Source of the DNA: Candidatus Hydrothermarchaeales archaeon
GTDB lineage: Archaea; Hydrothermarchaeota; Hydrothermarchaeia; Hydrothermarchaeales; JAZGAD01
Reading direction: 5' to 3'
Assembly (NCBI GenBank): GCA_036444275.1
Contig: JAZGAD010000047.1
Location: forward strand, 6,125 to 70,124
Length of the DNA: 64,000 nucleotides
Both the position numbers and the translations under genes were made by a program. The stretch's first letter is position 1. The number at the start of each line of letters is the position of its first letter. Below, one piece after another: positions 17,364-39,759 of this stretch. The notes beneath the pieces are model-generated. The model ran no database searches. It was given only the letters and a program-made list of their open reading frames with translations, and was not told where the DNA came from.

Positions 17364-18731
17364 ATGATAAAGGACCTTCCGGTTGATGTCGGGCTTATCT
17401 ACGAAGGGGAGAGGATAAGAAAGAATTTAATGTATGTGGACCTCGCCGGGCCTAAAAGCAAGGGGGCAGAGCTTCTTAGAGTGGCACCAGCGGCGAAGGT
17501 GAAGGACACCAAGGTAAAGGTTGTCGGCCTTGATATAACTGACATGGAAGAGGGCAAAGCATATCCATTCAGCATTCTGGTGGAAGTCGCCGGCAAAACA
17601 TTGGAGGAGGACTTGGAAGGAGTCTTCGAGAGACGCATTCACTATTTCCTCAACTATATACAGGGCTTCATGCACCTCAACAGCAGGGACATAATATGGT
17701 GCAGGGTTGGCAAGGATTCAGCCAAGAAGGGCATTACTCTAAAACACATAGGGCAAGCCCTCATGGACCTCTTTAAATCCGAGTTCGACACCATAGAGAA
17801 GATACAGGTGACCTTTTACACCAGCGATAAGGAGGTAGATAAGTTTCTAGCTAAAGCGAGGAAGGTCTATGAAAAACGCGATTCCAGGATACGCGGTCTT
17901 CGCGATGAAGACGTCGATACATTTTATGGTTGTGCCCTGTGCCAGAGTTTCGCCCCGCAGCACCTATGTACGATAACACCGAGTAGGACATCCTCCTGCG
18001 GATCTATATCCTGGTTCGAGGGCAGAGCTGCTGCCAAGGTGGACCCGAAGGGGCCTATATTCGCTATATCCAAGGGAGAACTAATAGATGAACTAAAGGG
18101 AGAGTACTCCGGGCCAGACGAAGCGACATATGAGCGCTCCAGTGGCACTGTATCCAAGGTATATCTGCATAGCCTCTTCGATTATCCTCACACATCCTGC
18201 GGTTGCTTTGAGGCCATAGCCTTCTACATGCCTGATGTGGATGGGATAGGGATCGTATCCAGGAGCTTTAATGGAAAGACGCCCTTTGGTATACCATTCT
18301 CAACTATAGCTGGACAGGTTGGCGGCGGCTTGCAGAGCACTGGATTCGCCGGTATAGCCGTAGAGTATCTGCGCTCACCCAAATACCTCCAAGCAGACGG
18401 CGGCTGGGAGCGAACAGTCTGGTTGCCCAAGGAACTCAAGGAGAGGATCGGCGATGACATACCAGAGCACATGAGGGATAAGATAGCCACTGAGGAGGAC
18501 GCTACAGATCTAGAATCCTTAAAGAAATTCCTCCAAGAAAAAGGACATCCAGTCATTGAGCGGTGGAAAAAAGAAGCTGTCGAGGTAGAAAAAACGAGTA
18601 AGCCTGTTGAGGTATCAGAGCTTCAGGTACTTGAGGGCATGCCGCTTGATGGAAGTGGGGTAACTATCGTCTTCAAGAACGCCAAGATCTATGCTGAAAA
18701 GGTGATCATCAAGCGGAAGGGGACGAGATAA
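17364..18731 (+). CDS. cdhC: acetyl-CoA decarbonylase/synthase complex beta subunit (acetyl-CoA synthase, CdhC)
   Basis: The 455-aa product has the A-cluster Cys motif region CALCQSFAPQHLC ... SCGCFE, and cdhD and cdhE lie downstream. Confidence 0.85.
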   Translation: MIKDLPVDVGLIYEGERIRKNLMYVDLAGPKSKGAELLRVAPAAKVKDTKVKVVGLDITDMEEGKAYPFSILVEVAGKTLEEDLEGVFERRIHYFLNYIQGFMHLNSRDIIWCRVGKDSAKKGITLKHIGQALMDLFKSEFDTIEKIQVTFYTSDKEVDKFLAKARKVYEKRDSRIRGLRDEDVDTFYGCALCQSFAPQHLCTITPSRTSSCGSISWFEGRAAAKVDPKGPIFAISKGELIDELKGEYSGPDEATYERSSGTVSKVYLHSLFDYPHTSCGCFEAIAFYMPDVDGIGIVSRSFNGKTPFGIPFSTIAGQVGGGLQSTGFAGIAVEYLRSPKYLQADGGWERTVWLPKELKERIGDDIPEHMRDKIATEEDATDLESLKKFLQEKGHPVIERWKKEAVEVEKTSKPVEVSELQVLEGMPLDGSGVTIVFKNAKIYAEKVIIKRKGTR

Positions 18732-19879
18732 TGAGGTATGATCTCGATGAACTTATCGCCTCCTTAGTTGATGCGGAAACAGTCGAACTTGAGAATGTCA
18801 CTATAGATACTGAAGAACTGGTCCTTGAAATCAGGAGGCTCGCAGGAGCCCGAAGACCTCTACATCCACCTATTCTGAAGCCCGAGAGACTGAAATTCCA
18901 AGTTCCCAAGGGAGAGTACAGGGGAGAAGTAGTAGAAGTGCAGTTCGGGGCTACGAAGGGCGATGGCGGGACTAGAGGAAAGGCAATTAAGATAGGTGGA
19001 CAGCGAAGCCTCTACTCCTTTGAGGATGGCATGCCAAATAGACCAGTTATCGCATATGATGTCTTCGATATGCCTATGCCAAGCTTTGCTAAATCGCTGA
19101 GAGAGGAGTGGCAGGATGCCTGGGATACCCCAGCGGAATGGGCAAAGAAAGCTGTGAAGCTGGGTGCAGATATGATAACCCTCCACTTAATATCAACAGA
19201 TCCAGGGATCAAAGATACCTCTCCTAAGGAAGCTGCTAAAACCGTGGAGGACGTGCTGCAGGCCGTAGATGTTCCCTTGGTTATCGGGGGCTCAGGTAAT
19301 CCAGAGAAGGACCCTGTGCTCTTCGAGAAGGTAGCTGAAGCTGCTGAGGGGGAGCTATGCCTACTCGCCTCTGCAAACCTTGACTTGGATCATAAGAGGA
19401 TAGTGGATGCTGCCAATAAGTACCGACACAACGTCCTATCCTGGACTTCTATGAATATAACAGACCAGCAGATGCTCAATAAACTCCTCCTCGACGAAGG
19501 GCTTCCGCAGGAGCGCATGGTCCAAGATCCCACTACAGGAGCGCTCGGCTATGGTTTGGAGTACACGTATTCCATCATTGAAAGGCTTAAGCTCAGCGCA
19601 CTTAAGGGAGAGAAGATATTGCAGAGCCCTATCTCCTGCGGTGTGACAAATGCATGGGCCGCTAGAGAAGCCTGGATGAATGAGCCTAGCTGGGGTGCAC
19701 GGGAGTACCGCGGTCCCCTGTGGGAGATAGTAACTGCAGTCACTGTGCTATTGGCAGGAGCTGACATGATGATGATGCTTCACCCTGGAGCCGTGAAGGC
19801 TGTGAAGGATATAATAGGGGCTATATCTGGAGAATTGAAAACCGAGCCCCTAGCTTACGAGGAATGGATCGCTCTATAG
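18731..19879 (+). CDS. cdhD: ACDS complex delta subunit (corrinoid Fe-S protein small subunit, CdhD)
   Basis: TIM-barrel-like 382-aa protein between cdhC and cdhE, with start-stop overlap to cdhC. Confidence 0.8.
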   Translation: MRYDLDELIASLVDAETVELENVTIDTEELVLEIRRLAGARRPLHPPILKPERLKFQVPKGEYRGEVVEVQFGATKGDGGTRGKAIKIGGQRSLYSFEDGMPNRPVIAYDVFDMPMPSFAKSLREEWQDAWDTPAEWAKKAVKLGADMITLHLISTDPGIKDTSPKEAAKTVEDVLQAVDVPLVIGGSGNPEKDPVLFEKVAEAAEGELCLLASANLDLDHKRIVDAANKYRHNVLSWTSMNITDQQMLNKLLLDEGLPQERMVQDPTTGALGYGLEYTYSIIERLKLSALKGEKILQSPISCGVTNAWAAREAWMNEPSWGAREYRGPLWEIVTAVTVLLAGADMMMMLHPGAVKAVKDIIGAISGELKTEPLAYEEWIAL

Positions 19880-19886
19880 GGGGCCT

Positions 19887-21311
19887 GTGATGGTCAAGAT
19901 ATCACCACTGGAGATATACAAGCTCCTCCCAGGTACCAACTGCAAAGAGTGCGGCGAGGAGAGCTGCATGGCATTTGCCTCCAAGCTCATTGAGAGAGCG
20001 AAGGGAGTGGGAGATTGCCCACCTCTTGCAGAGGATAAATATTTAGAAAAGAGGGAGAAGCTGATAGAGCTCGTTACACCCCCGGTGAAGGAAGTAGTTG
20101 TAGGTGTTGGGGAAAGAGCAGTTGCTATCGGTGGGGAGGAAGTCATGTATCGCCATGAGCTCACCTTCTTCAACAAGACAGCCTTCTTCATAGATGTTCA
20201 CGATGAGATGAGCCAAGAGGAGTTGGCAAAGAAGGTTGAAGCCATAGACAAGTTCACCTTTGGAAGGGTCGGCCAAGAGTTGAAGCTCCAGGGGGTAGCG
20301 GTTAGGGCTAAGAGCGGGGAGCCCACGAAGTTCGGCGAGGCAGTGCTAGTAGTGACTGAGAAAACCGACCTCCCTCTAATGCTCTGCTCCTATGATCCAA
20401 AGCTGCTGGAAGTGGCTCTGGAGATAGCATTGGATAGAAGGCCTCTCATCTATGCGGCGACAAAGGATAACTGGGAGCAGGTTGTGAATCTAGCCCTGAA
20501 GCATGCCTGCCCGGTAGTTGTGTCGTCGCCAGGCGACATAGAGGGATTGATTGAGCTATCACAGAACTTGATGGAGAATGGAATAGAGGATATTGTCTTG
20601 GACATAGGCACTTATCCTGACGGTGGACAGCTTAAAGCCATGGAGGAGAATCTGGTCATGCTCAGGAGATCTGCTATAGAGGAAGAGGTAAAGCCCTTGG
20701 GATTCCCCATCTTGGGCGTGCCGATGGTAGCTGGTATGAGGGAGAAAGATCCAGTTAAGGCTGCTATGGCAGAGGTAACACTAGGTGCTTCGTTGATACT
20801 GAAATACTGCGATATCATGGTAGTTAGCTCCATGGAGGTCTGGTCCCTTTTACCACTTCTCACCATACGGCAGAATATCTACACGGATCCGAGGATGCCC
20901 CTCCAGGTGGAAGCAGGTCTCAAGATTCTAGGCAGCCCCGACGAGAATGCACCTGTCTTTCTCACCTCCAATTTCGCCTTGACCTATTACACTGTGGCAT
21001 CTGATCTGGAGGCAGCGAAGATACCATGCTATGTATTAGTAGCTGATACAGATGGACACGCAGTGGAGGTAAGCATGGCTGGTCAGAAGCTAACTGCAGA
21101 CGTGGTCAAAAACGTTCTAGAGTCTTCTAAGGTCGCGGAAAAAGTGAAGCATAAAAAGCTCATCATTCCTGGTAGAGCATCTAGGATAAGCGGAGAGATC
21201 GAAGACGCTACGGGCTGGGAGGTAATGGTGGGTCCCATAGACTCGGCCAGAATACCAAAGTTCCTGGATGAAAAGTGGAATGGCACGGCAGTCAGTAAAG
21301 GTCGTCAATAA
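19887..21311 (+). CDS. cdhE: ACDS complex gamma subunit (corrinoid Fe-S protein large subunit, CdhE)
   Basis: The N-terminal 4Fe-4S motif reads ISPLEIYKLLPGTNCKECGEESCMAFA...C, and the protein is 474 aa. Confidence 0.9.
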   Translation: MMVKISPLEIYKLLPGTNCKECGEESCMAFASKLIERAKGVGDCPPLAEDKYLEKREKLIELVTPPVKEVVVGVGERAVAIGGEEVMYRHELTFFNKTAFFIDVHDEMSQEELAKKVEAIDKFTFGRVGQELKLQGVAVRAKSGEPTKFGEAVLVVTEKTDLPLMLCSYDPKLLEVALEIALDRRPLIYAATKDNWEQVVNLALKHACPVVVSSPGDIEGLIELSQNLMENGIEDIVLDIGTYPDGGQLKAMEENLVMLRRSAIEEEVKPLGFPILGVPMVAGMREKDPVKAAMAEVTLGASLILKYCDIMVVSSMEVWSLLPLLTIRQNIYTDPRMPLQVEAGLKILGSPDENAPVFLTSNFALTYYTVASDLEAAKIPCYVLVADTDGHAVEVSMAGQKLTADVVKNVLESSKVAEKVKHKKLIIPGRASRISGEIEDATGWEVMVGPIDSARIPKFLDEKWNGTAVSKGRQ

Positions 21312-26994: not shown

Positions 26995-28446
26995 ATGACA
27001 GAAGCTAGTCTCTTAATAGTAGATGATGCGGAGGGTATACGGGAAACCCTCTCGGATATATTCAAGGAGAAGGGTTACGGTACCGATGTAGCTGAGGATG
27101 GCCGGGCAGCTATAGAGAAGGTAAAGAAGAGCTTCTTTAACGTCGTGCTCCTGGATATAAGGCTACCTGATATCTTGGGTGTAGAGGTATTGGAGAGTTT
27201 GAAGGAGATACGGCCAGATATAGAAGTGATAATGATTACAGCATATGCCTCTCTTGAGACCTCTATTGAGGCACTGAATAAGGGAGCATATGCCTATATC
27301 ATGAAGCCCCTTAACATGGGGGTGGTGATAGCTACCGTTAAGAAAGCCCTGGAGAAACAGCGCCTATCCGCAGAGAACATGTGGTTAACGGAATTCAACG
27401 AACGCATTATAAAGAATGCACCGATTGGGATCTTAACCACCGATGAAAAGGGCGATATAACGAGTGCGAATCCAGCTATTCTTGAGATTCTGGATAGCTT
27501 GGAGACGGAAAAATTGATTGGGCTTAGCGTATTAACCCTCCCAACCAGTAGGGCAATGGGCTTAGATAAGGAACTCAAGAAAGTATTGTCTGAGGGAAAG
27601 GAGATAGAGCTAGCGGGGAAGTATGTTTCTGAATCTGGAGCAGATGTTTTTCTCCATATCAGAAGCACCCCATTGAGAAACGAAAAAAGAGACATAACAG
27701 GGCTCCTAGCGATAATCGAGGACGTAACTGAGAGAAAGAAGCTTGACAGCATGAAGGATGCGTTTATCTCCAATGTCTCGCATGAGTTGAGGACTCCCCT
27801 TACATCTATCCTCACTTCTCTGGAGCTTCTTTCAAAGGAAACTGTAGAGAAGGAGAAGCGTAAGCTCTTGGAAATCTGTGATAGGAATGCTTTGAGGCTA
27901 AATCGATTGGTGGACAATCTATTGGAAGTCAGCCGGATTGAAGTAGAGACATTAGATGTTCGGACACTCGACGTTACTCGGGTAGTGGCAGAGATAATAT
28001 CAGAGCTGCAGGATTTTGCCGTTGTGAGTAAAGTTACGCTAAAATCCCTTATCGAGGATGAGTTCCTCGTAAGGGCCGATAAAAAATCACTACGGCTTGT
28101 CTTCCTGAATCTGATCAGCAATGCCATCAAGTTTAATAAAGAAGGGGGTAAGGTAACGATATCCGGCGAGCGGGAGGATTCATTTACCAGGTTCTGCGTA
28201 GAGGATACAGGCATAGGCATTCCAAGAGGAGATTTGAAAGAAATATTCAAGAGTTTCTACCAAATCGATGCAAGCATAAGGCGCAGGTACCCTGGAGCTG
28301 GTGTTGGTCTAACTATAACGAAAAACATAGTAGACGCCCATGGAGGCAAGATATGGGCTGAGAGCAAGCCCGGTAAAGGAAGCAAGTTCTGTTTCACTCT
28401 ACCCTCTGGAAGTAGAACCGGGAAGAAGATAAAAGAGGTAGGATAA
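26995..28446 (+). CDS. hybrid response-regulator receiver / PAS / histidine kinase (cytoplasmic)
   Basis: REC (LIVDDAEGIRETL...VLLDIRLPD), PAS, HisKA H-box SHELRTPLTSI and HATPase_c (G-box GVGLTI). Paralog of 35642..37279. Confidence 0.85.
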   Translation: MTEASLLIVDDAEGIRETLSDIFKEKGYGTDVAEDGRAAIEKVKKSFFNVVLLDIRLPDILGVEVLESLKEIRPDIEVIMITAYASLETSIEALNKGAYAYIMKPLNMGVVIATVKKALEKQRLSAENMWLTEFNERIIKNAPIGILTTDEKGDITSANPAILEILDSLETEKLIGLSVLTLPTSRAMGLDKELKKVLSEGKEIELAGKYVSESGADVFLHIRSTPLRNEKRDITGLLAIIEDVTERKKLDSMKDAFISNVSHELRTPLTSILTSLELLSKETVEKEKRKLLEICDRNALRLNRLVDNLLEVSRIEVETLDVRTLDVTRVVAEIISELQDFAVVSKVTLKSLIEDEFLVRADKKSLRLVFLNLISNAIKFNKEGGKVTISGEREDSFTRFCVEDTGIGIPRGDLKEIFKSFYQIDASIRRRYPGAGVGLTITKNIVDAHGGKIWAESKPGKGSKFCFTLPSGSRTGKKIKEVG

Positions 28447-28582
28447 GGATAGAAAAAGATTAGATAACCCGCAGAAGACGTTTAGTAATTTACGTCTCAC
28501 AATTCAGGGGGAATAGATGCAACATCTAAGCAATGACAAGAGAGCAATTTACGAACGTATAAGACGGAAAAACGGATGAGCT

Positions 28583-29257
28583 CTATACCTCTTTCCCCTC
28601 TGCCAATTCTTCCAGCTCCAACGGGTGCTCATGTTCCATTTGTTCTTTACTCAGTGTTCCAGTTATCCATTGCTTTGCCATTGGAAATATATCTGGATTC
28701 AAAATCGCCGCGTATAAATGTACGACTATTACAACAGAAAATGCCAAGATGGCCTCCCACCCATGTATCAACCAAGCATAATTGACGAACTGTAGCGGTA
28801 GGACTTCCAAGGTCATATCGAATGTGAACCACATCATAAGTCCTGTTACAACTACTATGAGAGAACCAACAGCTCCGGCCCAGTAATCGAACTTCTGCTC
28901 CCAGGTATACCTCCCCATTTTTGGCATTTCGTCGGTCATCCGTAAATTGTATTTGATGTGGTGTATAGCGTCATCGAAATCTTTCCTTTGCGGCATTATG
29001 TCCTTCTTTCCTCTGTCGATCATGGTGTAATATATCACATGTATAAGGCCTGTACCGATGAATACTACTGCAGCAATTTGATGATATAAACCTCTATTAG
29101 CCGGACCCCCAAGCAAGTCAACTATACTCTGTGCCCAGGATGTGTGGGCGTATTTCAATGGGAATCCCGTCAATGCCAAGATGAAAAACGATAAAGCCCA
29201 AAGGACGTGTTGTATCCTCTGAAAGACGGTAAATCTTAAGAATTCTTCTTCGGTCAT
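28583..29257 (-). CDS. membrane b-type cytochrome (cytochrome b561/Ni-hydrogenase-type dihaem cytochrome b family)
   Basis: Four TM helices with conserved His (QRIQHVLWALSF..., HQIAAVVFIGTGLIHVIYY). It overlaps the dihaem cytochrome c gene by 4 nt. Confidence 0.7.
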   Translation of the reverse strand: MTEEEFLRFTVFQRIQHVLWALSFFILALTGFPLKYAHTSWAQSIVDLLGGPANRGLYHQIAAVVFIGTGLIHVIYYTMIDRGKKDIMPQRKDFDDAIHHIKYNLRMTDEMPKMGRYTWEQKFDYWAGAVGSLIVVVTGLMMWFTFDMTLEVLPLQFVNYAWLIHGWEAILAFSVVIVVHLYAAILNPDIFPMAKQWITGTLSKEQMEHEHPLELEELAEGKEV

Positions 29258-29823
29258 TTCGCACGCCCCCCTTTCCTACTCTTACCTAACCTCCGACTAA
29301 AGTCCAATATCTCAAAGACTACGAAGAATCCTAGCACCGCGGAGATAAGTGTTTTATAGAAGAAGTTTATCAGCCCATTCACGGAGATTGGGCCTAGAGA
29401 GTATATATCGCTTCCATGCATCGATCCCTTGCCGGCATTGGCCAATTTAACATCATGACAATCTTCCCTCGCGCATATATCAGGTCTATTCTTAGGATTA
29501 GTGGGTGAATTTGGATCGCTCTGCGGAAGGAAATACATCCAGTCCACCATGCCGTGGCAATCCGTACAAGTTGGGACACCCTCTTTTCCGAGGGCAGCCG
29601 CTTTACCATGAGGGGACTCTTGGTACGTCTTGTTCGCATATTCAAAGGTATATGCAAGGTTATACCTCGTCTTAGCCTCAGAAGGTAGGGGGCTCTTCCA
29701 TCCCTCACTCCTGTATTTCTCCATGTCCCTCTTCTGGACTTCCTGAGCCTCCACGACATGGCTCAGGGATATGAAGCCTAAAAGGAAGAGTATTAGAACC
29801 CCGCCCTTTACCAACTCTCTCAT
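29254..29823 (-). CDS. membrane-anchored dihaem c-type cytochrome
   Basis: Signal peptide, one CXXCH (CTDCH) and one CX4CH (CAREDCH), and a C-terminal TM helix. Confidence 0.65.
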   Translation of the reverse strand: MRELVKGGVLILFLLGFISLSHVVEAQEVQKRDMEKYRSEGWKSPLPSEAKTRYNLAYTFEYANKTYQESPHGKAAALGKEGVPTCTDCHGMVDWMYFLPQSDPNSPTNPKNRPDICAREDCHDVKLANAGKGSMHGSDIYSLGPISVNGLINFFYKTLISAVLGFFVVFEILDFSRRLGKSRKGGRAK

Positions 29824-29850
29824 TGGTCCTGTTCTCCTTGTAAAATTTTA

Positions 29851-31350
29851 TTATTCATGCAGACGCGGAGGTTCGAGGTATTCTTGGAGTACCCAAGGCG
29901 AAACGTGGTTGTGGCATCCGTTGCATGAGTTGGGCTGCACATTCCAGAGCAGATCGTCCAGGGTTTTTCCTGCGGACATAGCTTCTCGGGCTTTTTTCTT
30001 GAGCAGCTCTTCCACTTGGGTCGTGTTAAGGCCTTCTACATCTTTAGCCTCGAGGCCGTAGAAACCCAGGACGGTGTTATCCTTCTTCGCGGCTTTGTCA
30101 ACTAGGAGTTTTATGCTGACCTCTGGTTTAATGACCTTGAACCTGTGGCTCCTAATATCTCCGGGGTTAATGTTCTTTGCAGTCGGGGGCATATGGCAGC
30201 CGACGCAGTTCCCGAAGTCGTGGATAGTATGGCTCAACCCAGCGAGGCCTGGAACCCTCCTCGGCTCACCGTGGCAGGCTTTGCACAGCGCAGTGCCTGC
30301 TAGCTTGGTCTCGAACCTGCCTTCACCTTTAGAGTGAACGGTGTGGCAGTCCCAACAGGTTATTCCTGCCTTCGCATGCTCACTTATCTGCCAATCTGGA
30401 TACTGTTGGTGGTGTGATTTGGAGTCTCCACTCGGCCAGAAGCGTTTTGGTGTATCTTTTTCGCGTGTAACAGGATCGTACAGGGGTATCAAGTTCATAC
30501 CGGGTTTGTAGCCAACGGGATATCCGTATTTCGCATCGAGGGTAGAATGACCTCGGGTGTGGCATGAGCCACAAACCATGACCCCTATATCTGTTTGTGG
30601 GATCTTTGCTGGGTTTACGATCGTATCCTTCTTGTAGGGGGTATCGGCCAATATGTGGTTGCTCCCCGGTCCGTGGCAAGCTTCACATCTGGCTCCGTTA
30701 TCTATCCAAGTTGAGGCATAGGTATCCGTGACTTCATCGTAGTTTATTTGAAAGCCTGTTGTATGGCAACCAGCGCATTTATACTGCCAGATCCTTCCCT
30801 TGCTGCTCCAATAATTTTTGGGATCATCATAATCATATTTCTCCAGCCCATGGTAGTCTTGCCACTTCTGTTCCCTAATATTCCATTGAACAGGGAGTAT
30901 ATGGAATTCTCCATTGTCGAACTTCGTGAGATATCTCTGCTTCCAGGCACTACCGATGGTATAGAGCACTTCGTAGATGTGCTCTTCTCCATCAGGACCG
31001 ATAGTAGTTATATAATATTTTCCGTCCTCTGTCGACATCGTGGTGTTCTTATCCTTAACGGTCAATTCGTTGTTCTTGACAAAATCGCCGAGGACGACGT
31101 TTTCGCCGATTTCCTGTATTTTATATGGATGCAGTGTCGTTTTCCAACCGGCGTAAGTTCTCTCGTGGCATTGCTTACATTGAACAGAACCGACGTAAGT
31201 AGCCCCCTCAGTGGTGGTTGGCTTTTCTTCTCCTATTCTAAATCGTTCTAAGAAGCTGAATCCAGGCGTTAAGGTTATAAATGCAATCGTTACTACTACA
31301 AACGCGGCTACAAGCAACCGCGAGATTCTTTTTCTCTCCTCTTGCTGCAT
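29851..31350 (-). CDS. octahaem c-type cytochrome (OTR/ONR/HAO-like class by size and haem spacing)
   Basis: Eight CXXCH motifs (CKQCH, CAGCH, CEACH, CGSCH, CWDCH, CKACH, CVGCH, CNGCH), an N-terminal signal/anchor, and 499 aa. Confidence 0.85.
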   Translation of the reverse strand: MQQEERKRISRLLVAAFVVVTIAFITLTPGFSFLERFRIGEEKPTTTEGATYVGSVQCKQCHERTYAGWKTTLHPYKIQEIGENVVLGDFVKNNELTVKDKNTTMSTEDGKYYITTIGPDGEEHIYEVLYTIGSAWKQRYLTKFDNGEFHILPVQWNIREQKWQDYHGLEKYDYDDPKNYWSSKGRIWQYKCAGCHTTGFQINYDEVTDTYASTWIDNGARCEACHGPGSNHILADTPYKKDTIVNPAKIPQTDIGVMVCGSCHTRGHSTLDAKYGYPVGYKPGMNLIPLYDPVTREKDTPKRFWPSGDSKSHHQQYPDWQISEHAKAGITCWDCHTVHSKGEGRFETKLAGTALCKACHGEPRRVPGLAGLSHTIHDFGNCVGCHMPPTAKNINPGDIRSHRFKVIKPEVSIKLLVDKAAKKDNTVLGFYGLEAKDVEGLNTTQVEELLKKKAREAMSAGKTLDDLLWNVQPNSCNGCHNHVSPWVLQEYLEPPRLHE

Positions 31351-31606: not shown

Positions 31607-32395
31607 TCAGTCCTTTTTCTTACTCTTATAGGCTTCAAAGACTTCCAAGAACGGTTTAAATAGGTCTATCGGCACCGGGAATATGACGTTTGAGCCCCGT
31701 TCTCCTGAGATCTCGACTAGGGATTGCAGATATCTCAATTGGAGTGCCATTGGATGGGGTCCAATAATCTCTGCTGCTTCCGCGAGTTTTTCTGCTGCTT
31801 GGAATTCTCCCAAGGCGTTGATCACCTTTGCCCTTCTCTCCCTCTCTGCCTCGGCTTGCCTCGCCATAGCCCTCTTCATGACTTCTGGAAGCTCGACATC
31901 CTTGACCTCAACACATGATACCTTCACTCCCCAGGGTTCTGTATGTGAATCTATAATCCTTTGAAGAGTATAATTGATCTTATCCCTCTCTGCGAGCAGT
32001 TCGTCCAGCTCATGTTGCCCAATAACACCCCGTAAGGTTGTCTGAGATATCAGCGTGGTAGATGCCACGTAGTCCGCCACCTCTACTGTGGATTTCACTG
32101 CATCCATTACGTTGAAGTATATAACGGCATCGACTTTGGTCGTCACATTGTCCTTGGTGATAACGTCTTGGGCCGAGACATTTTCTGTAACTACCCTCAG
32201 ATCTACCCTGAAGATCTTATCCACAAAGGGTATTATAAAGACTAAGCCCGGTCCTCTTGCATCTTGCAACCTCCCCATCCTGAAGAGAACCCCTCGCTCG
32301 TACTCTTTAAATACCCATATCGACATCTTGAGAAGTACCGAGACTACCAAAACTACGAGTATAGTAATTATAGTAATATACGTCCCTACAGGCAT
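31607..32395 (-). CDS. SPFH/band-7 (stomatin/prohibitin-like) membrane protein
   Basis: N-terminal TM plus a stomatin core (FKEYERGVLFRMGRL...VVTENVSAQDVITKDNVTTKVDAVIYF). Confidence 0.85.
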   Translation of the reverse strand: MPVGTYITIITILVVLVVSVLLKMSIWVFKEYERGVLFRMGRLQDARGPGLVFIIPFVDKIFRVDLRVVTENVSAQDVITKDNVTTKVDAVIYFNVMDAVKSTVEVADYVASTTLISQTTLRGVIGQHELDELLAERDKINYTLQRIIDSHTEPWGVKVSCVEVKDVELPEVMKRAMARQAEAERERRAKVINALGEFQAAEKLAEAAEIIGPHPMALQLRYLQSLVEISGERGSNVIFPVPIDLFKPFLEVFEAYKSKKKD

Positions 32396-32686: not shown

Positions 32687-35227
32687 ATGATTGTGAGGTC
32701 CAAAAGTCGATATGAAATACCGAAAATGGAGAAAATGGATTGGATGAACAAAGAACAACAAAAAGCGGCGCTCATTTTGGTAGTGGCATTTATTGGTAGT
32801 GCACTTACAGTAAACGGAACGCTTACAGCGGCGGAAGAAAAATATAGTACGATATTAAGCGCTGTGAGAACAAACGAAACGATAATCATAGATGGGCAGT
32901 TAAAGGAGTCTTCATGGAATGAGACAAAGACACTGATCATCCCAGTGGTGGATGGAAAGGTCGGGGATGTAGATGTGGAGATGAAGGCATTATACGATAC
33001 TGACTATATCTACATGTACATCGTATGGCCTGATCCGACCCAAAGCGATGCTTTATTCTGGGGATATAATGGCACTGCTTGGAACCCCCCAAATAAAAAT
33101 ACAGAGGATATTTTCACGATCTTCTGGAATATAAGGGACTCGGTTGAGGGATATGATATAGCTGGATGCGCCATTACTTGCCACGCAAATAGGATGCATA
33201 CCAATACCCCCGAAGAAAGACTCGATTACTGGAAATGGAAGGCAGAGAAAGGCAACCCCTCCGGCTATATGTGGGATGGATTCCTAGACGATATCGTGGT
33301 TATCGGGGAGAAGATATATCCCGGTTTTTCTAGGACCTTTATGATCGAGAAGGCATGGCATTCACACAAGCTAGATGAAACATCGGGTGACTATGTGGAG
33401 GAGAGAAAGAACGCGATTATCGATGAGAGAGGCAATTTCATTGGGCCGAGATATTATGAACCTGACGCAAGGGGCGAAGATGCGAAACACATCACGATGG
33501 AGGAGATCCTTAGGGACGAGGCCGTGGAATTTTTGAATTTAACAAAACTGAACGATGGAAGAGAGATCTCGATCGGCTTCAAAGTGCCTGTATACATCTC
33601 CGAAAAACCGACAGGAAGTGCTAGAGATATAAGCGCCAAAGGGGTTTATTATGACGGGAAGTGGCATCTGGAATTCAAGAGAAAATTGCAGACCGGGCAC
33701 GACGACGATGTCCTGTTCGATATCGCGAAGACCTATCGTTTCAGCATAGCTGTGAATGACGATTCTCACGGATCCGCCAACGAGGGTTATGGCCAAGGAC
33801 ACAGCATAAGCATGCTGGCGCGAACCCTAGAATTTGGCGGGATTGGTTCTGAAGAGATAACCCAACTGGCACTAATCCGCGATTATCTTCAGACCGCCAA
33901 GGCATATACCGGGCGCGGGGAATCGGGAATGGCGCTTTCAGAGGTCGATCATGCGTTGGCGATTTTCAATGCGATCAGGGGAGCAGTCGCCGACGAAGAC
34001 CCAGAACTCTACATGGACATTAGAAAGAGATTTGTAGAGGCCAAGAGGAATCCCTCGATCGATAACCTTGATGTCGTGCTTCAAGGCATCGAGGTTGCTA
34101 CATTAACTTTGCAGGGAAAGAGAGAGCCGCCAGAAGCGCCGTGGAATGTAAAGCTCCTAGTTCTCTGGGGGAGCGTACAACTTTACGTCTTTGTCTTTAT
34201 ATCGATATTTGTTCTCTATCCCCTCTACAAAACGATACAAACAACTAGAATACCGGAAATGCGCTATTTCGGCATCTTCCTATTTATAGTCATCCTCCCC
34301 CTATTTCTTGAAGGCGTTGGGAGGTTTGGGGTCCTTTTCAAGATCAGATTTTTGCAGAACTTCAGTTTCACAACAAATGAATACATAACCTTGCTCTGGG
34401 CGATAGGCATGTTCATAGCCTTGCTCATAGCCAAAGTTGGATTCACCGAAATAGATGAGACCATTCGCTCATTAAAATATTACAGCGCTGAAGTCGAAAC
34501 TAAGATGGAGGAGTTGAGAAAATCGCAAGAGCAACTGGTCAAGTCAGAGAGGATGGCTTCCATAGGGCAACTGGCAGCGAGTGTTGGCCACGAGTTGAGA
34601 AATCCTCTTGGAGTGATCAAGAACGTGAGCTACTATCTCAGCATGGCCCTAGCCGAGAAAGATGAAAAGGTGAAGAAGCACTTAAATATCCTAGAAAGGG
34701 AACTAGATACCTCCAACAAAATCATCACCGACTTATTGGACTTTTCACGGGGGGAGATAGAACCCACTTTTGGGGAAGCCAACATCAATGCGATCCTTAA
34801 GGATACATTGGCCAGGGCATCGGTACCTGACAATGTCAAAGTGGAAACTTATCTGGCCGATTTACCCTCAATGAGAGTAGATGGAGAGCAATTACAGCGG
34901 GTGTTCTTGAATATGATTTCAAACGCTGTTCATGCGATGCCCGATGGTGGTAAATTGATTATCAGAACCAAAAGTAAGGGCAACTCCGTAGAGATAGAGT
35001 TCGAGGACACCGGCAAAGGGATTTCGAAAGAGGATATAAAGAAGATCTTCGAACCGCTCTTTACCACTAAGGCAAAAGGGATTGGGTTGGGGTTAGCGAT
35101 CTGTAAACAAATCATCGATGGGCATGGGGGCACCATCGATGCGGTGAGCGCTGTAGACCAGGGGGCAACTTTTATCATCAAACTACCCGTGATGGAAGTA
35201 GAGGAAGATGAAGAAAAGGAAAACTAG
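32687..35227 (+). CDS. membrane sensor histidine kinase with an extracytoplasmic DOMON/EB_dh-like putative haem-binding domain
   Basis: Signal peptide, a DGxLxExxW-type DOMON/EB_dh start (IDGQLKESSWNE), the conserved GCAITCHANRMH (CX3CH), a helical linker, about 4 TM helices, HisKA (VGHELRNPL) and HATPase_c. The start may be MNKEQQ at 32744. Confidence 0.85.
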   Translation: MIVRSKSRYEIPKMEKMDWMNKEQQKAALILVVAFIGSALTVNGTLTAAEEKYSTILSAVRTNETIIIDGQLKESSWNETKTLIIPVVDGKVGDVDVEMKALYDTDYIYMYIVWPDPTQSDALFWGYNGTAWNPPNKNTEDIFTIFWNIRDSVEGYDIAGCAITCHANRMHTNTPEERLDYWKWKAEKGNPSGYMWDGFLDDIVVIGEKIYPGFSRTFMIEKAWHSHKLDETSGDYVEERKNAIIDERGNFIGPRYYEPDARGEDAKHITMEEILRDEAVEFLNLTKLNDGREISIGFKVPVYISEKPTGSARDISAKGVYYDGKWHLEFKRKLQTGHDDDVLFDIAKTYRFSIAVNDDSHGSANEGYGQGHSISMLARTLEFGGIGSEEITQLALIRDYLQTAKAYTGRGESGMALSEVDHALAIFNAIRGAVADEDPELYMDIRKRFVEAKRNPSIDNLDVVLQGIEVATLTLQGKREPPEAPWNVKLLVLWGSVQLYVFVFISIFVLYPLYKTIQTTRIPEMRYFGIFLFIVILPLFLEGVGRFGVLFKIRFLQNFSFTTNEYITLLWAIGMFIALLIAKVGFTEIDETIRSLKYYSAEVETKMEELRKSQEQLVKSERMASIGQLAASVGHELRNPLGVIKNVSYYLSMALAEKDEKVKKHLNILERELDTSNKIITDLLDFSRGEIEPTFGEANINAILKDTLARASVPDNVKVETYLADLPSMRVDGEQLQRVFLNMISNAVHAMPDGGKLIIRTKSKGNSVEIEFEDTGKGISKEDIKKIFEPLFTTKAKGIGLGLAICKQIIDGHGGTIDAVSAVDQGATFIIKLPVMEVEEDEEKEN

Positions 35228-35582
35228 CATTTTGGTAGTAGATGACGATATAGGCACGTGTGAAACCTTGGCCGATATTCTGACTGCGAAAGGATATAAT
35301 GTAACTACTGCAGAGAGCGGAATTGAAGCGGTTGAGAAACTCAAGGGGGAGCTCTTCAAAGTTATCCTCATGGATATAAAGATGATGGGAATAAACGGCA
35401 TAGAGACAATTAGGGAGATCAAGAAGATAGTATATCCTGAGGTGGCGATAATTATGATGACGGCCTACGTCGCCGAGGCCCTCGTAACAGAAGCTTTGAG
35501 GGAAGGGGCATATGCCGTTGTCTACAAACCTTTGGATATTGAGAGGATAATAAAGCTCATTGAAAGTGCAACAGTTAAGTAG
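35208..35582 (+). CDS. single-domain CheY-like response regulator
   Basis: Receiver with ILVVDDD...ILMDIKMMGINGIE...MMTAY. It overlaps the end of the upstream kinase. Confidence 0.85.
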   Translation: MKKRKTSILVVDDDIGTCETLADILTAKGYNVTTAESGIEAVEKLKGELFKVILMDIKMMGINGIETIREIKKIVYPEVAIIMMTAYVAEALVTEALREGAYAVVYKPLDIERIIKLIESATVK

Positions 35583-35641: not shown

Positions 35642-37279
35642 ATGTCCGAAGAAAGCAGCATCTTGATAATTGACGATGATAAAGGGATGCGCGAGACCCT
35701 TACAGACATACTCCAGGTGAAGGGCTACAAGACGGAGAGCGCAAAGGACGGAGAAGCGGCCTTGGATAAGCTGAAGGAGAAGTCCTTCAATGTAGCGCTC
35801 GTCGACATAAAGCTCCCGGATATTTCAGGCACAGAGGTATTGAAAAAACTCAAAGAGATTCAGCCGGATACGATAGTGATCATGATCACTGCTTTCGCTT
35901 CTCTCAATACTTCGATTAAGGCTTTGAAAGAGGGGGCATATGGCTATATCATGAAACCCTTGAATATGGATGAATTATTCGCTACCATCGGAGAAGGTCT
36001 CGAGAAACAGCGGTTGCAAAAAGAATTAAAAAAGTACTCTGAGCAACTGGAAGAGATGGTGAAAGCTAGGACTGAGGAATTACAGAATGCCTATGAAGAA
36101 CTCAAAGGCCTCGCCATCGAGAGAGCCCGTAATATCGAAGTAATACAAGAGCAATCGAGGGAACTCAAGGAAGCTAAGGACTTCTTGGATAACGTGATAG
36201 ACAGTAGCGCTGACGCGATAATCACTACTGGGTTGGACGGTACGATAACCTCTTTTAGCAGGGGTGCTGAGGAGCTCTATAAATACAAGGCTAAAGAGGT
36301 TATAGGCAAGCCGGCCCTCTCCCTTTACCCAAAGGAGCTTCGAGAAGAGAGGAGGGCTGGGTTGGATACGCTTCTTAAGGGCGAGACTATACGGAATATG
36401 AGAACCAGGATATACAATGCCGATGGAGAGCTTGTAGATATAAGTCTCTCTCTTTCCCGGCTCAGAGATATCTCCGGAAAGGCTATTGGTACTGTCGGAG
36501 TCTCAAAGGATATATCCAAGGAGATAGAGGGAGAAAAACGTCTGACGGAGGCATATGAGAGGCTTGTCGAATTGGATAAGATGAAGGACGAGTTCCTATC
36601 CAATATTTCACATGAGCTACGCACACCTATAACCTCGATTGTGACCTCCCTAGAGTTATTAGAGGAAGAAAGTCTACCGGGGGAGAGGGAGAAACTTCTG
36701 GAGGTATCTAAGAGGAATGTTTGGAGGCTGGATAATCTCGTCGGCAACCTACTGGAGTTCAGCCGCTTAGGAACGCAGAAGCTGCAAATGCAACCATTGA
36801 ACGCAAGTGTGCTGGTTCGTGAGCTTATAGCTGAAATGGAGAACTTTGCGGCAAGCAATGAAGTGGAGGTTAAGTCCTTTCTAAAGGAAGAAACCATGAT
36901 CATGGCTGATAAAAAGTTCGTAGGGCCTATATTCGGGAATCTCATTGGCAATGCCATAAAATTCAATAAGCGGGGGGGCAAGGTTAGGGTATCGGCGGAG
37001 GAAGAGAATTCGTGGATAAAGTTTTGCGTAGAAGATACCGGTGTAGGAATCCCCAAAGAAGGCTTGGACAAGGTATTCGATAGATTCTACCAGATCGATG
37101 CAAGCATCAGACGCAGGTACCCAGGCACAGGCTTAGGGCTGACCATAGCCAAGGAGATGGTGGAGCGCCAGGGAGGCATGATATGGGCTGAAAGCGAATT
37201 GGGAAAGGGTAGCAGGTTCTATTTCACTCTGCCCTCGGAACCTAGAACTAGAACCAGAAAAAAGATAAACGAGAAATGA
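35642..37279 (+). CDS. hybrid response-regulator receiver / coiled-coil / PAS / histidine kinase
   Basis: REC about 70% identical to the 26995 protein, PAS, SHELRTPITSI and HATPase_c. Confidence 0.85.
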   Translation: MSEESSILIIDDDKGMRETLTDILQVKGYKTESAKDGEAALDKLKEKSFNVALVDIKLPDISGTEVLKKLKEIQPDTIVIMITAFASLNTSIKALKEGAYGYIMKPLNMDELFATIGEGLEKQRLQKELKKYSEQLEEMVKARTEELQNAYEELKGLAIERARNIEVIQEQSRELKEAKDFLDNVIDSSADAIITTGLDGTITSFSRGAEELYKYKAKEVIGKPALSLYPKELREERRAGLDTLLKGETIRNMRTRIYNADGELVDISLSLSRLRDISGKAIGTVGVSKDISKEIEGEKRLTEAYERLVELDKMKDEFLSNISHELRTPITSIVTSLELLEEESLPGEREKLLEVSKRNVWRLDNLVGNLLEFSRLGTQKLQMQPLNASVLVRELIAEMENFAASNEVEVKSFLKEETMIMADKKFVGPIFGNLIGNAIKFNKRGGKVRVSAEEENSWIKFCVEDTGVGIPKEGLDKVFDRFYQIDASIRRRYPGTGLGLTIAKEMVERQGGMIWAESELGKGSRFYFTLPSEPRTRTRKKINEK

Positions 37280-37308: not shown

Positions 37309-39759
37309 ATGCAAAGGAGAGCGAGGGACTTTTATCAATTAAGCTTGTTTAGTAGGGCTAAACGTAAGGATACGGCTATTTACATACCTAAAATTATACT
37401 TATAGTGATAATACTCGCTAGTTTTGCAGTTGTAGCAGGAGAGGTAGTGGAAAGACAGAGCACCATTTTGACAGCTGAGAGGGTCACTGAGCCGGTCGAG
37501 GTAGATGGGCTAGCTACTGAGAGTGCTTGGGATAGCGCGAGGCCGCTGGTGGTCACGGTCCAAGATGGTAGTATAGGGAGGATAGACGTATACCTCAAGG
37601 CATTATACGATTCTGACTACATCTACATCTATGCCACGTGGCCTGATCCAACTGAGAGTGTTAGTAAGCGTATGTGGGGCTTCAATGGCATAAACTGGTC
37701 TTTTTCTGACGACGAAGACAGATTTTCGGTCTTCTGGAATATAGACGATTCCGTCAAGGGCTTCAATGTCGGTGGTTGTGCGATGCTCTGTCACGGTGAT
37801 AGGATGCATGCTAATGCAGAGGGTGAGAAGGCTGACTCTTGGCACTGGAAGAGCAGTAGAACCAATCCAGTTGGTTATGCAGACGACAAATACGTAGACT
37901 CCCACGTTGTGCCTTACGAGGGTGGAGAGAAAATGGTAGGTCGCCATGGAGACCAAGCAGTCAGCGGGGGTTACATGCGTAACATCAATGACGAGGGCAC
38001 TAAGCCACTCTACTATGAGCCCTTGCCTGAGGATGAGTTGGATGCCTTGTTCCTATTGGAGGAGGAAGTCGAGGATGGTGAGGCAGTATTGTTGGATGAG
38101 GCGGAGCTTAAGTCGGGTATAGTTGTACCTGGTTATATCCTTAGTAAGCCAAGTGGCAGCAGAGGCGACATCGATTCTAAAGGTGTATGGCAAAACGAGA
38201 GGTGGGCTGTGGAGTTTCGTAGGAAGCTTGTGACTGGGCACGATGATGATGTCCAGTTTGATACTAGTAGGACGTATCGTTTTGGTATAGCTGTGATGGA
38301 CAATACGGGTGGCTTTGAGGGCTTCGGAAAGGGTCATAGCTTTGACTTGGGTGCCAGGACGCTTGAGTTCGGCGGCATTGGGAGCGAAGAGGTGACTCAG
38401 TTGGTCTTGATACGGGACTACCTAGTTACTGCCAAAGCACATGTTAGAGATGGAAAACCAGGATTGGCACTTTCAGAAGCCAACGATGGTCTCACATTGT
38501 ACAACGAGATCCGCGACGAGGTTGCAGACGTGGATCCAGAGCTCTACATAACTATAAAAAATGCATTCGTGGATTCTGTGAGGAATCCCACACTAAGCAA
38601 TATAGACATCCTGATAAGAAACATCGACGATGTTGTGCTAACTTTCCAGGGAAAGAGGCAACCAGCTGAACCGACGTGGAATCTAAAGCTCCTCATCGCA
38701 TGGGGGCGGATACAGCTCTATGTGTTCGTCGTGCTCTCAATACTTGTAACATACCCCATCTATAAGACAGTAAAGACGAGCGCGAGACCAGAATTACGCC
38801 ATCTGAGTCTCTTCTTGCTGATAGTAATGGCTCCGATATTCCTCGAGGGAGTGGGCCGCTTTGGTGTTCTTGCTAAGATTCATTTTCTGCAGAAGTTCAG
38901 TTTCACGACAAATGAATATATAACAATGATATGGGCGATAGGCATGTTCATAGCTTTGTATGTCGCTAAGATAGGATTCAACGAAGTAGATGATACCATC
39001 AAGTCGCTGGGTTACTACAGCACTGAACTCGAGACCAAGATGGAGGAGCTGAGGAAATCACAGGCAAAACTTTTAGGAGCAGAGAAATTGGCTTCTATAG
39101 GGCAGCTGACTGCAAGCATCGGGCATGAGCTGCGTAATCCGTTGGGCGTGATTAAGAACATAAGCTACTATCTCGACATGAAATTAGGCGATAGGGATGA
39201 AAAAATTAAGAAACATCTGCGGCTCTTGGATGAGGAGCTTGTCAGGTCAAATGAGATAATAAGCGATCTTTTGGACTTCTCTAGGGGTATAGAGCCGACT
39301 CTTCACGATGTTGACATCAATCCAGTCGTGGGGGAAGCCCTATTGAGAGCCACGATACCAGGTAACATCGAAGTGAGCACAAATTTTGAGGATGCATCAC
39401 CTAAGGTCTCCGTGGATAGCGAGCATATAGTGAGGGTATTTATGAATATAATCTCGAATGCAGTTCAGGCGATGCCAGAAGGTGGGAGTTTAAGGATAAG
39501 AACAGTGAAAAAGGATGATTTCATAGGAATAGAGATCACGGACACAGGCGTTGGAATCCCGAAAGAAGATGTAGGGAAAGTCTTTGAACCTTTATTTAGT
39601 ACGAAGGCGAAGGGGATAGGCCTGGGCCTAGCCATTAGTAGGCAGATCATAGAGAGACATGGCGGTAGCATTGAAGTAGAGAGCGTCCTAGATAGTGGGA
39701 CTACATTTATTGTAAAACTCCCGATAAAAAGGAGTCAGGGCGATGAAGGGGAAGACTAG
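37309..39759 (+). CDS. membrane sensor histidine kinase, paralog of 32687..35227, with the same DOMON/EB_dh-like domain and CX3CH motif
   Basis: VDGLATESAWDS..., GGCAMLCHGDRMH, the same TM/linker/HisKA/HATPase arrangement, and a colinear alignment by eye. Confidence 0.85.
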   Translation: MQRRARDFYQLSLFSRAKRKDTAIYIPKIILIVIILASFAVVAGEVVERQSTILTAERVTEPVEVDGLATESAWDSARPLVVTVQDGSIGRIDVYLKALYDSDYIYIYATWPDPTESVSKRMWGFNGINWSFSDDEDRFSVFWNIDDSVKGFNVGGCAMLCHGDRMHANAEGEKADSWHWKSSRTNPVGYADDKYVDSHVVPYEGGEKMVGRHGDQAVSGGYMRNINDEGTKPLYYEPLPEDELDALFLLEEEVEDGEAVLLDEAELKSGIVVPGYILSKPSGSRGDIDSKGVWQNERWAVEFRRKLVTGHDDDVQFDTSRTYRFGIAVMDNTGGFEGFGKGHSFDLGARTLEFGGIGSEEVTQLVLIRDYLVTAKAHVRDGKPGLALSEANDGLTLYNEIRDEVADVDPELYITIKNAFVDSVRNPTLSNIDILIRNIDDVVLTFQGKRQPAEPTWNLKLLIAWGRIQLYVFVVLSILVTYPIYKTVKTSARPELRHLSLFLLIVMAPIFLEGVGRFGVLAKIHFLQKFSFTTNEYITMIWAIGMFIALYVAKIGFNEVDDTIKSLGYYSTELETKMEELRKSQAKLLGAEKLASIGQLTASIGHELRNPLGVIKNISYYLDMKLGDRDEKIKKHLRLLDEELVRSNEIISDLLDFSRGIEPTLHDVDINPVVGEALLRATIPGNIEVSTNFEDASPKVSVDSEHIVRVFMNIISNAVQAMPEGGSLRIRTVKKDDFIGIEITDTGVGIPKEDVGKVFEPLFSTKAKGIGLGLAISRQIIERHGGSIEVESVLDSGTTFIVKLPIKRSQGDEGED

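Follow-up and report, generated by a model that had tools for sequence, protein, structure and literature searches.

What could an archaeon do with three adjacent genes that encode a b-type cytochrome, a small dihaem c-type cytochrome and an octahaem c-type cytochrome? The question is raised by a 64,000-nucleotide stretch of DNA (the window) from contig JAZGAD010000047.1 of a Candidatus Hydrothermarchaeales archaeon (assembly GCA_036444275.1). An original prediction, made from the sequence of the window, had described these genes as one operon of an archaeal genome, had likened them to the arrangement proposed for extracellular or periplasmic electron transfer, and had added that the octahaem protein might be catalytic. 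Here we propose, with a probability of about 0.55, that the three products make up one self-contained three-subunit respiratory complex, a quinol:acceptor reductase in which the second haem of the octahaem subunit would be of the catalytic type.

The open reading frames (ORFs) of the three genes (Table 1), their haem-binding motifs and a Pfam match of the cytochrome b bear out the predicted genes, haem counts, membrane anchoring and cytochrome b family. The genes are co-directional, in the order octahaem cytochrome, dihaem cytochrome, cytochrome b; a gap of 27 nucleotides (nt) containing GGAG separates the first two, and the last two overlap by 4 nt through an ATGA start/stop. Among 80 genome loci and the contigs that were looked up, the order octahaem cytochrome, small cytochrome c, cytochrome b recurs in 20 other loci, four of archaeal type and 16 bacterial. 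The overlap, the tight spacing and this conserved order support a single transcription unit that includes the cytochrome b gene, as had been predicted. The archaeal origin of the window, likewise anticipated, is confirmed by genes for TFIIB, fibrillarin, Nop5 and CdhC/D/E, and the closest homologues of all three cytochromes (80-90% identity) are found in metagenome-assembled genomes (MAGs) of Candidatus Hydrothermarchaeales. The GC content is 45-46% within and around the operon and gives no compositional sign of recent transfer.

The octahaem cytochrome c and its putative open haem

The octahaem protein carries eight CXXCH motifs, starting at C58, C192, C222, C260, C332, C356, C382 and C476, which account for all 16 of its cysteines; the eighth is a plain CNGCH, and there is no CXXCK. 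By our estimate, based on cysteine and histidine frequencies of about 1-2%, fewer than 1 protein in 1000 of this size would contain a chance CXXCH, and the motifs are not a chance feature, since all eight are invariant or nearly so among 45 octahaem homologues. In a PDB sequence search the best match was OcwA of Thermincola potens (6I5B, E 3e-21), which rose to E 8e-45 with a profile of the 45 sequences and was followed by OmhA (6QVM), NrfA proteins, MccA, c554 and ONR. The AlphaFold2 model (mean predicted local distance difference test, pLDDT, of 84.4) matched OcwA with a score of 20.2 (329 residues, 30% identity), OmhA with 12.7, MccA with 8.8, ONR with 5.4 and NrfA with 5.3. At about residues 78-165 the model contains a beta-sheet domain of nine strands, with pLDDT values of 93-98 over most of it, and this region aligns with OcwA, whose own beta-sheet domain is shared only with MccA (PMC6703420). 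By its fold, its haem-core topology and this domain the protein belongs to clade 3 of the NrfA/HAO superfamily (OcwA/OmhA/MccA/c554; Soares et al., 2022). Its relatives all fall within that superfamily, in agreement with the predicted enzyme-like character as opposed to an MtrA-like wire; the closer likeness to OTR, ONR and HAO that had been suggested holds for the superfamily and not for membership in those groups.

Two haems of OcwA, 2 and 5, are penta-coordinate and lie under the histidine pairs HH281/282 and HH380/381, respectively, while the set of haems 1-4 and 6-9 overlays the eight-haem set of MccA (PMC6703420); H282 has been termed catalytic (Soares et al., 2022). Residues H313/H314 of the octahaem protein (SHHQQYPDW) align with HH281/282 of OcwA (SHHLQYPEW), the offset of 29 between the numbering of the chain and that of the paper having been verified by counting. 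Since the fifth OcwA motif in sequence order, CLKCH, has no counterpart in the alignment, leaving the eight haems that OcwA shares with MccA, the comparison points to a core of eight haems like that of MccA, combined with a pocket of the OcwA type. The same HH region aligns with the QHPEY segment of NrfA, the segment that bears the catalytic histidine of that enzyme, and profile homology to NrfA spans haems 3-6 of the octahaem protein. Exactly seven histidines outside the motifs (H74, H232, H325, H339, H374, H377 and H402) are conserved in at least 96% of the 45 homologues, one short of the number required by eight bis-histidine haems, and this census fits one open haem. In the same set H313 and H314 are conserved at 87% and 76%, Q315 and Q138 at 100%, Q316, K137 and Y140 at 91% and R266 at 84%. 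Taken from the alignment and the census, haem 2 is probably the open, catalytic-type haem, with its distal site free.

The likeness to OcwA comprises the fold, the beta-sheet domain and the aligned HH pocket motif. There are also differences: the protein has eight haems where OcwA has nine, it lacks the second, NrfA-type active site of OcwA (the CLKCH haem), and it is membrane-tethered with quinone-linked partners of its own, unlike OcwA, which resides in the cell wall of a Gram-positive bacterium. An assignment to OcwA in the strict sense (nine haems, two open sites and a second HH at haem 5) was therefore rejected on the eight CXXCH motifs and the missing CLKCH. A copper sulfite reductase of the MccA type (Wolinella succinogenes, 4RKM) was set aside because neither a CX15CH motif nor cysteines of the Cu(I)-binding Cys399/Cys495 type are present; moreover, the operon has no MccC/MccD (FeS/NrfD) partners and the sequence similarity to MccA is marginal. 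A likeness to NrfA and NrfH lies in the profile homology and in the bacterial octahaem relatives encoded beside NrfH/NapC-type proteins, but the protein is no pentahaem-core NrfA: it is devoid of CXXCK and scores 16.5 bits with the NrfA model TIGR03152, for which the cut-off is 692. Membership among the HAO, OTR and ONR octahaem enzymes, judged by similarity of fold and by a tyrosine cross-link (HAO), lysine ligation (OTR) or CXXCK (ONR), was likewise rejected, and a decahaem wire of the MtrA/DmsE type was discarded as well (TIGR03508, 53 bits against a cut-off of 192; the Mtr-like Pfam match is sub-threshold).

The N-terminus of the octahaem protein is a hydrophobic transmembrane (TM) anchor (residues about 11-31) with no obvious cleavage site; members of its archaeal clade carry an inserted helical segment at about residues 410-470. 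Six relatives with 50-61% identity (P0003-P0006, P0008 and P0009, for example in loci L085 and L086) have lipobox-like N-termini instead (LLSGC, LLLGC, LCSGC, LLAGC), so that the cysteine-free anchor of the subclade in the window and the lipobox of its relatives represent two ways of membrane tethering. With an anchor of either type the protein would be held at the outer face of the membrane.

The proposed dihaem relay and the cytochrome b

The dihaem protein has one canonical motif, CTDCH (C86), and one of the CX4CH type, CAREDCH (C117). It begins with a cleavable-looking signal peptide ending in VEA|QE and ends with a hydrophobic TM helix followed by a basic tail; H72 (in SPHG) and H136 (in GSMH) are conserved and are likely the distal ligands of the two haems, judging from the aligned sequences. 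Searches of Pfam, NCBIfam and PDB sequences returned nothing for this protein and a word-indexed search returned two close homologues only, whereas an exhaustive HMMER search gave 797 proteins at E up to 0.001. Residues 65-185, with both haems and the anchor, correspond to a unit repeated several times in most of the matches listed; these are mainly multihaem cytochromes of 200-1000 amino acids (aa), and the unit often stands at their C-terminal, membrane-anchored end. In one of them (P0125, 668 aa, 11 c haems) it is directly followed by a TM helix and a cytochrome b domain resembling FdnI, an architecture that has also been described for CbcL of Geobacter. Another (P0126) bears the pair CXXCH and C(A/G)xEDCH twice, so that the CX4CH motif is a conserved variant and no accident. 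At this place a plain CXXCH is seen in the relatives from L085 and L086. The protein also aligns with the second and third haem motifs and the anchor helix of a trihaem protein of 230-280 aa whose gene comes after the octahaem gene in many bacteria. The C-terminal TM helix of these bacterial trihaem partners (loci L018-L032) contains a conserved histidine, replaced by phenylalanine in the archaeal dihaem protein; the bacterial histidine echoes the proposal that, in Geobacter, a b haem of CbcB receives a histidine from CbcA.

The cytochrome b belongs to Pfam family PF01292 (Ni_hydr_CYTB; prokaryotic cytochrome b561), with E 1e-19 and 71.3 bits against a cut-off of 30.1, and has four TM helices of the FdnI/HydC type. 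In the alignment with Escherichia coli FdnI (1KQF chain C, E 4e-9), H17, H59, H165 and H180 stand opposite four histidines of FdnI, the b-haem ligands His18, His57, His155 and His169 of the formate dehydrogenase-N structure; these four and a fifth histidine, H73, are conserved in 24 relatives. The family is annotated in the source databases as formate dehydrogenase gamma, an identity that was not retained, given a score of 74.7 bits with TIGR01583 (cut-off 115.85) and no adjacent FdnGH, molybdopterin or iron-sulfur (FeS) genes; the protein is also under the curated cut-off for the hydrogenase subunit. Of its nearest non-orthologous relatives, one (P0282, 55% identity) is encoded directly after a multihaem cytochrome c of 375 aa, a Hydrothermarchaeales paralogue (P0283, 49%) adjoins a NapC/NirT-type protein, and a third (P0295, 43%) comes from a group 1 [NiFe] hydrogenase operon, in which it is the cytochrome b subunit. 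From these contexts it appears that cytochromes b of this type serve both quinone-reducing enzymes and b/c units. In the hydrogenase operon (L089, 3901..7155) the cytochrome b gene lies between the genes of the small and large subunits.

Two known systems help to place the b/c pair. Compared with formate dehydrogenase-N (FdnGHI), the gamma subunit is homologous and the middle subunit has a single C-terminal TM anchor, the layout of FdnH in the 1KQF structure as well; the catalytic and relay subunits, in contrast, are c-type cytochromes and not molybdenum-bisPGD and FeS proteins. The second system is that of the Geobacter cytochromes CbcBA and CbcL, b/c units described as working outward from menaquinol; CbcL joins a c domain with nine haems to a b domain with two, and CbcB and CbcL have no sequence homology to each other (Joshi et al.). 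The likeness of the archaeal pair to them is one of architecture, namely a dihaem b protein together with a c-type cytochrome that is held by a C-terminal TM helix (as in CbcBA) or fused (as in CbcL). Here there are two c haems and not seven or nine, the cytochrome b has four TM helices where CbcL has six, the anchor has phenylalanine where CbcA was proposed to provide the b-haem histidine, and the pair would feed a dedicated octahaem protein, whereas the Geobacter units feed soluble periplasmic cytochromes.

Partner exchange and the direction of electron flow

The family of the octahaem protein is a large one. Of 8,000 candidates examined, 3,106 matched it at E up to 1e-5, and they are spread over many bacterial phyla and the Hydrothermarchaeota. 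The octahaem-dihaem-cytochrome b order occurs in the window and in L001/L005 (82% identity), L086 (61%) and L085 (56%), and the order with a trihaem partner in 15 bacterial loci (L018-L032), whose hosts include Desulfovibrio, Desulfobacter, Desulfobaccales, Syntrophobacterales, Magnetococcales and Aliiruegeria; one locus (L010) is intermediate between the two arrangements. In the 15 trihaem loci no neighbour other than the three genes is conserved, and beyond the operon the 64-kb window contains no further multihaem ORF or cytochrome gene, which together argue that the trio is a self-sufficient module.

The bacterial octahaem homologues that are closest in sequence (46-51% identity) adjoin an NrfH/NapC-type protein with four to six haems. 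In one Hydrothermarchaeota MAG (L007, 1..3600) two tandem octahaem paralogues (404 and 458 aa) are followed by an NrfH-like pentahaem protein of 174 aa, so that both partner types are present in this phylum. In a rough neighbour-joining tree the archaeal dihaem clade falls next to L007, among the NrfH-partnered forms, and the trihaem clade stands apart; the family has evidently changed its quinone-coupling partners, as periplasmic terminal reductases such as NrfA typically do. A further subfamily of 650-850 aa, with eight haems and long C-terminal extensions (L037, L041-L084), stands alone, with no cytochrome partner gene nearby, in Alphaproteobacteria, Myxococcota and Acidobacteriota; some of its hosts are cultured, for example Paracoccus halophilus (L060) and Corallococcus coralloides (L067), and could be used to probe the function of the family.

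From the gene content, homologies, fold and conserved order we infer a complex, at the cytoplasmic membrane's outer face, that would be a haem-only version of the alpha-beta-gamma layout of formate dehydrogenase-N. The FdnI-type cytochrome b would carry two b haems on its four conserved histidines and exchange electrons with the menaquinone pool; the dihaem protein, anchored beside it through its C-terminal helix, would act as a two-haem relay, and the membrane-tethered octahaem protein, with its OcwA/MccA-type fold, would be the terminal subunit. Seven of the octahaem haems are probably bis-histidine ligated and would transfer electrons, and haem 2 would probably be open under a polar pocket formed by His313, His314, Gln315, Gln316, Arg266, Lys137, Gln138 and Tyr140. 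Most likely, quinol would drive the reduction, at haem 2, of a small acceptor, for which the candidates are an N- or S-oxyanion (nitrite, hydroxylamine, sulfite) or a soluble or chelated metal. Menaquinone biosynthesis genes have been found in Hydrothermarchaeota genomes (PMC6775978), and in the subgroups MBGE-B and -C nitrate reductases (Nar/Nap) were found without NirS/K (PMC6759336), which makes nitrite or hydroxylamine one candidate substrate.

Electrons could, however, run the other way. The octahaem protein would then oxidise an external donor (Fe(II), for instance, or a sulfur or nitrogen compound in reduced form, or else a partner or mineral that gives off electrons) and pass electrons inward through the dihaem protein and the b haems to menaquinone at the cytoplasmic side, conserving energy by a redox loop like formate dehydrogenase-N and group 1 hydrogenases. 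Such an input module would suit the FdnI-type cytochrome b with its four aligned histidines, its 43%-identical relative in a hydrogenase operon and the formate dehydrogenase gamma label of the family, and the host lineage inhabits iron- and sulfur-rich vents; in addition, OcwA both oxidises and reduces hydroxylamine (PMC6703420). We nevertheless hold it to be unlikely, considering that NrfH/NapC-type proteins are the partners of the closest bacterial octahaem relatives, that CbcL and CbcBA are described as working outward, and that the relatives with solved structures, namely OcwA, OmhA, MccA and NrfA, all act as reductases in vivo. In the NrfHA system NrfH is the quinol-oxidising partner. A conduit for extracellular electron transfer, the role towards which the original prediction leaned, is another reading to which we give little credence. 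In it the octahaem protein would be a tethered wire or terminal metal reductase, by which the electrons of menaquinol reach minerals of Fe(III)/Mn(IV), cytochromes of the S-layer or a syntrophic partner, as has been proposed for the cytochrome b and multihaem clusters of Methanoperedens and other anaerobic methanotrophic archaea (ANME) and for OcwA in Thermincola. The best structural matches, OcwA and OmhA, are indeed cell-surface metal reductases, the anchored b/c unit resembles CbcBA/CbcL and the Methanoperedenaceae bc clusters, iron reduction has been proposed for Hydrothermarchaeota, and an archaeon has no outer membrane to be crossed. Against this stand the lack of further multihaem, S-layer-anchored or conduit genes in the window and the conserved neighbourhood, the occurrence of bacterial members in diderms without nearby porin-cytochrome genes, where the substrate must enter the periplasm, and the small size of a tethered eight-haem protein, too short to cross an S-layer; the putative pocket residues (HH, Q315, R266, K137, Q138 and Y140) are also more conserved than a wire needs. 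Of the original interpretation, the enzyme-like octahaem protein and the single operon are retained, and a quinol-to-soluble-acceptor reductase is favoured over both alternatives because of the swapping of NrfH-type partners, the diderm hosts without nearby conduit genes and the conserved polar pocket residues.

Several points weigh against this reductase. The ligation of haem 2 is deduced from an alignment and a histidine census, and H482 (87% conserved), M105 or M387 might in principle serve as the eighth ligand; to our knowledge, there is no experiment on any member of this octahaem family. Cytochromes b of the FdnI/HydC type classically reduce quinone, in formate dehydrogenase and hydrogenase, and the complex may run in the opposite direction, its 43%-identical relative being a hydrogenase subunit. 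The AT-rich gap of 27 nt could conceivably hold an internal promoter, and the neighbouring genes give no pointer to the substrate. Lastly, OcwA reduces nitrite poorly (kcat 1 per min), its presumed substrates being Fe(III) oxides (PMC6703420), so that a catalytic-type haem is no proof of a soluble substrate.

Genomic surroundings and significance

The positions of the operon and of the features around it are given in Table 1.

Table 1. Features of the operon and its surroundings, in window coordinates.
Feature	Position	Strand	Length	Remarks
Octahaem cytochrome c gene	29851..31350	minus	499 aa	ORF
Dihaem cytochrome c gene	29254..29823	minus	189 aa	ORF
Cytochrome b gene	28583..29257	minus	224 aa	ORF
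TATA-like AT-only stretch TTAATATAAATATATATAA	31407..31425	minus	19 nt	Candidate archaeal promoter; sequence read and pattern scan
Oligo-T (T5) run	28568..28572	minus		Candidate archaeal terminator, 11 nt past the cytochrome b stop
SPFH/Band 7 membrane protein gene	31607..32395	minus		Directly upstream of the octahaem gene
EB_dh sensor histidine kinase gene	32687..35227	plus	846 aa	
EB_dh sensor histidine kinase gene	37309..39759	plus	816 aa	Paralogue of the preceding kinase
Two-component gene	26995..28446	plus		
Two-component gene	35208..35582	plus		
Two-component gene	35642..37279	plus		
CODH/ACS cluster	17364..21311	plus		CdhC and two CdhD-family genes, one with an FeS domain

The TATA-like stretch lies 57-75 nt 5' of the octahaem ATG and may be the promoter of the operon; between it and the upstream Band 7 gene, T8 and T7 runs (31532-31502, coding strand) follow the end of that gene. 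The T5 run downstream of the cytochrome b gene is a candidate terminator, and just one other T5 run is present within the 2.8-kb operon. A scan of the region for sigma-70 promoters and intrinsic terminators gave results at chance level, a bacterial-type scan of this kind being inapplicable to an archaeon. The Band 7 gene is also found upstream of the octahaem gene in the related locus L001.

A two-component island surrounds the operon. It includes two hybrid kinases with receiver, PAS, HisKA and HATPase domains and a stand-alone receiver, and a similar set is found in L001. The two paralogous sensor histidine kinases each have an extracytoplasmic EB_dh domain (E 1e-26 and 8e-32), with the haem-binding fold of the ethylbenzene dehydrogenase gamma subunit (DOMON-like), and a kinase of this type also flanks the cytochrome operon in L001 (82% identity). 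It may be a haem-based redox sensor that controls the operon. The cluster for CODH/ACS, short for carbon monoxide dehydrogenase and acetyl-CoA synthase, farther away, fits the potential for the Wood-Ljungdahl pathway and carboxydotrophy reported for Hydrothermarchaeota.

No description of this operon was found in the Hydrothermarchaeota genome papers or the surveys of multihaem cytochromes that were consulted. Its components are of known kinds, namely clade 3 octahaem cytochromes, FdnI-type cytochromes b and a b/c coupling in the style of CbcBA/CbcL. What appears undescribed is an OcwA-like protein without the NrfA-type site, a minimal two-haem relay with a CX4CH motif and, in an archaeon, the assembly of both with a cytochrome b. 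A bolder proposal, which we advance tentatively and regard as doubtful, is that the octahaem protein founds a catalytic class of its own: an enzyme akin to OcwA in which the NrfA-type site has been lost and which works with a single His-His/Arg/Gln pocket at haem 2, in a respiratory reaction that has no assigned gene in these organisms. If this were true, the candidates would be the missing nitrite or hydroxylamine step in those Hydrothermarchaeota subgroups that bear Nar/Nap and lack NirS/K, or a new reduction of sulfur or metal oxyanions, and the enzyme would plug into interchangeable quinone modules, either NrfH or a small cytochrome c with an FdnI-type cytochrome b.

For the Hydrothermarchaeota, uncultured archaea that abound in vents and crustal fluids and whose terminal electron acceptors have been guessed from genomes, the operon offers a compact and testable candidate for the link between menaquinone and an external acceptor or donor. 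The octahaem family to which it leads is a large one, without a characterised member, that stands between OcwA (iron reduction) and MccA (sulfite reduction) and is coupled to quinone by at least two interchangeable modules. Once its substrate is found, an annotation would follow for thousands of genes of sediment and subsurface bacteria, and a branch would be added to the evolution of multihaem enzymes.

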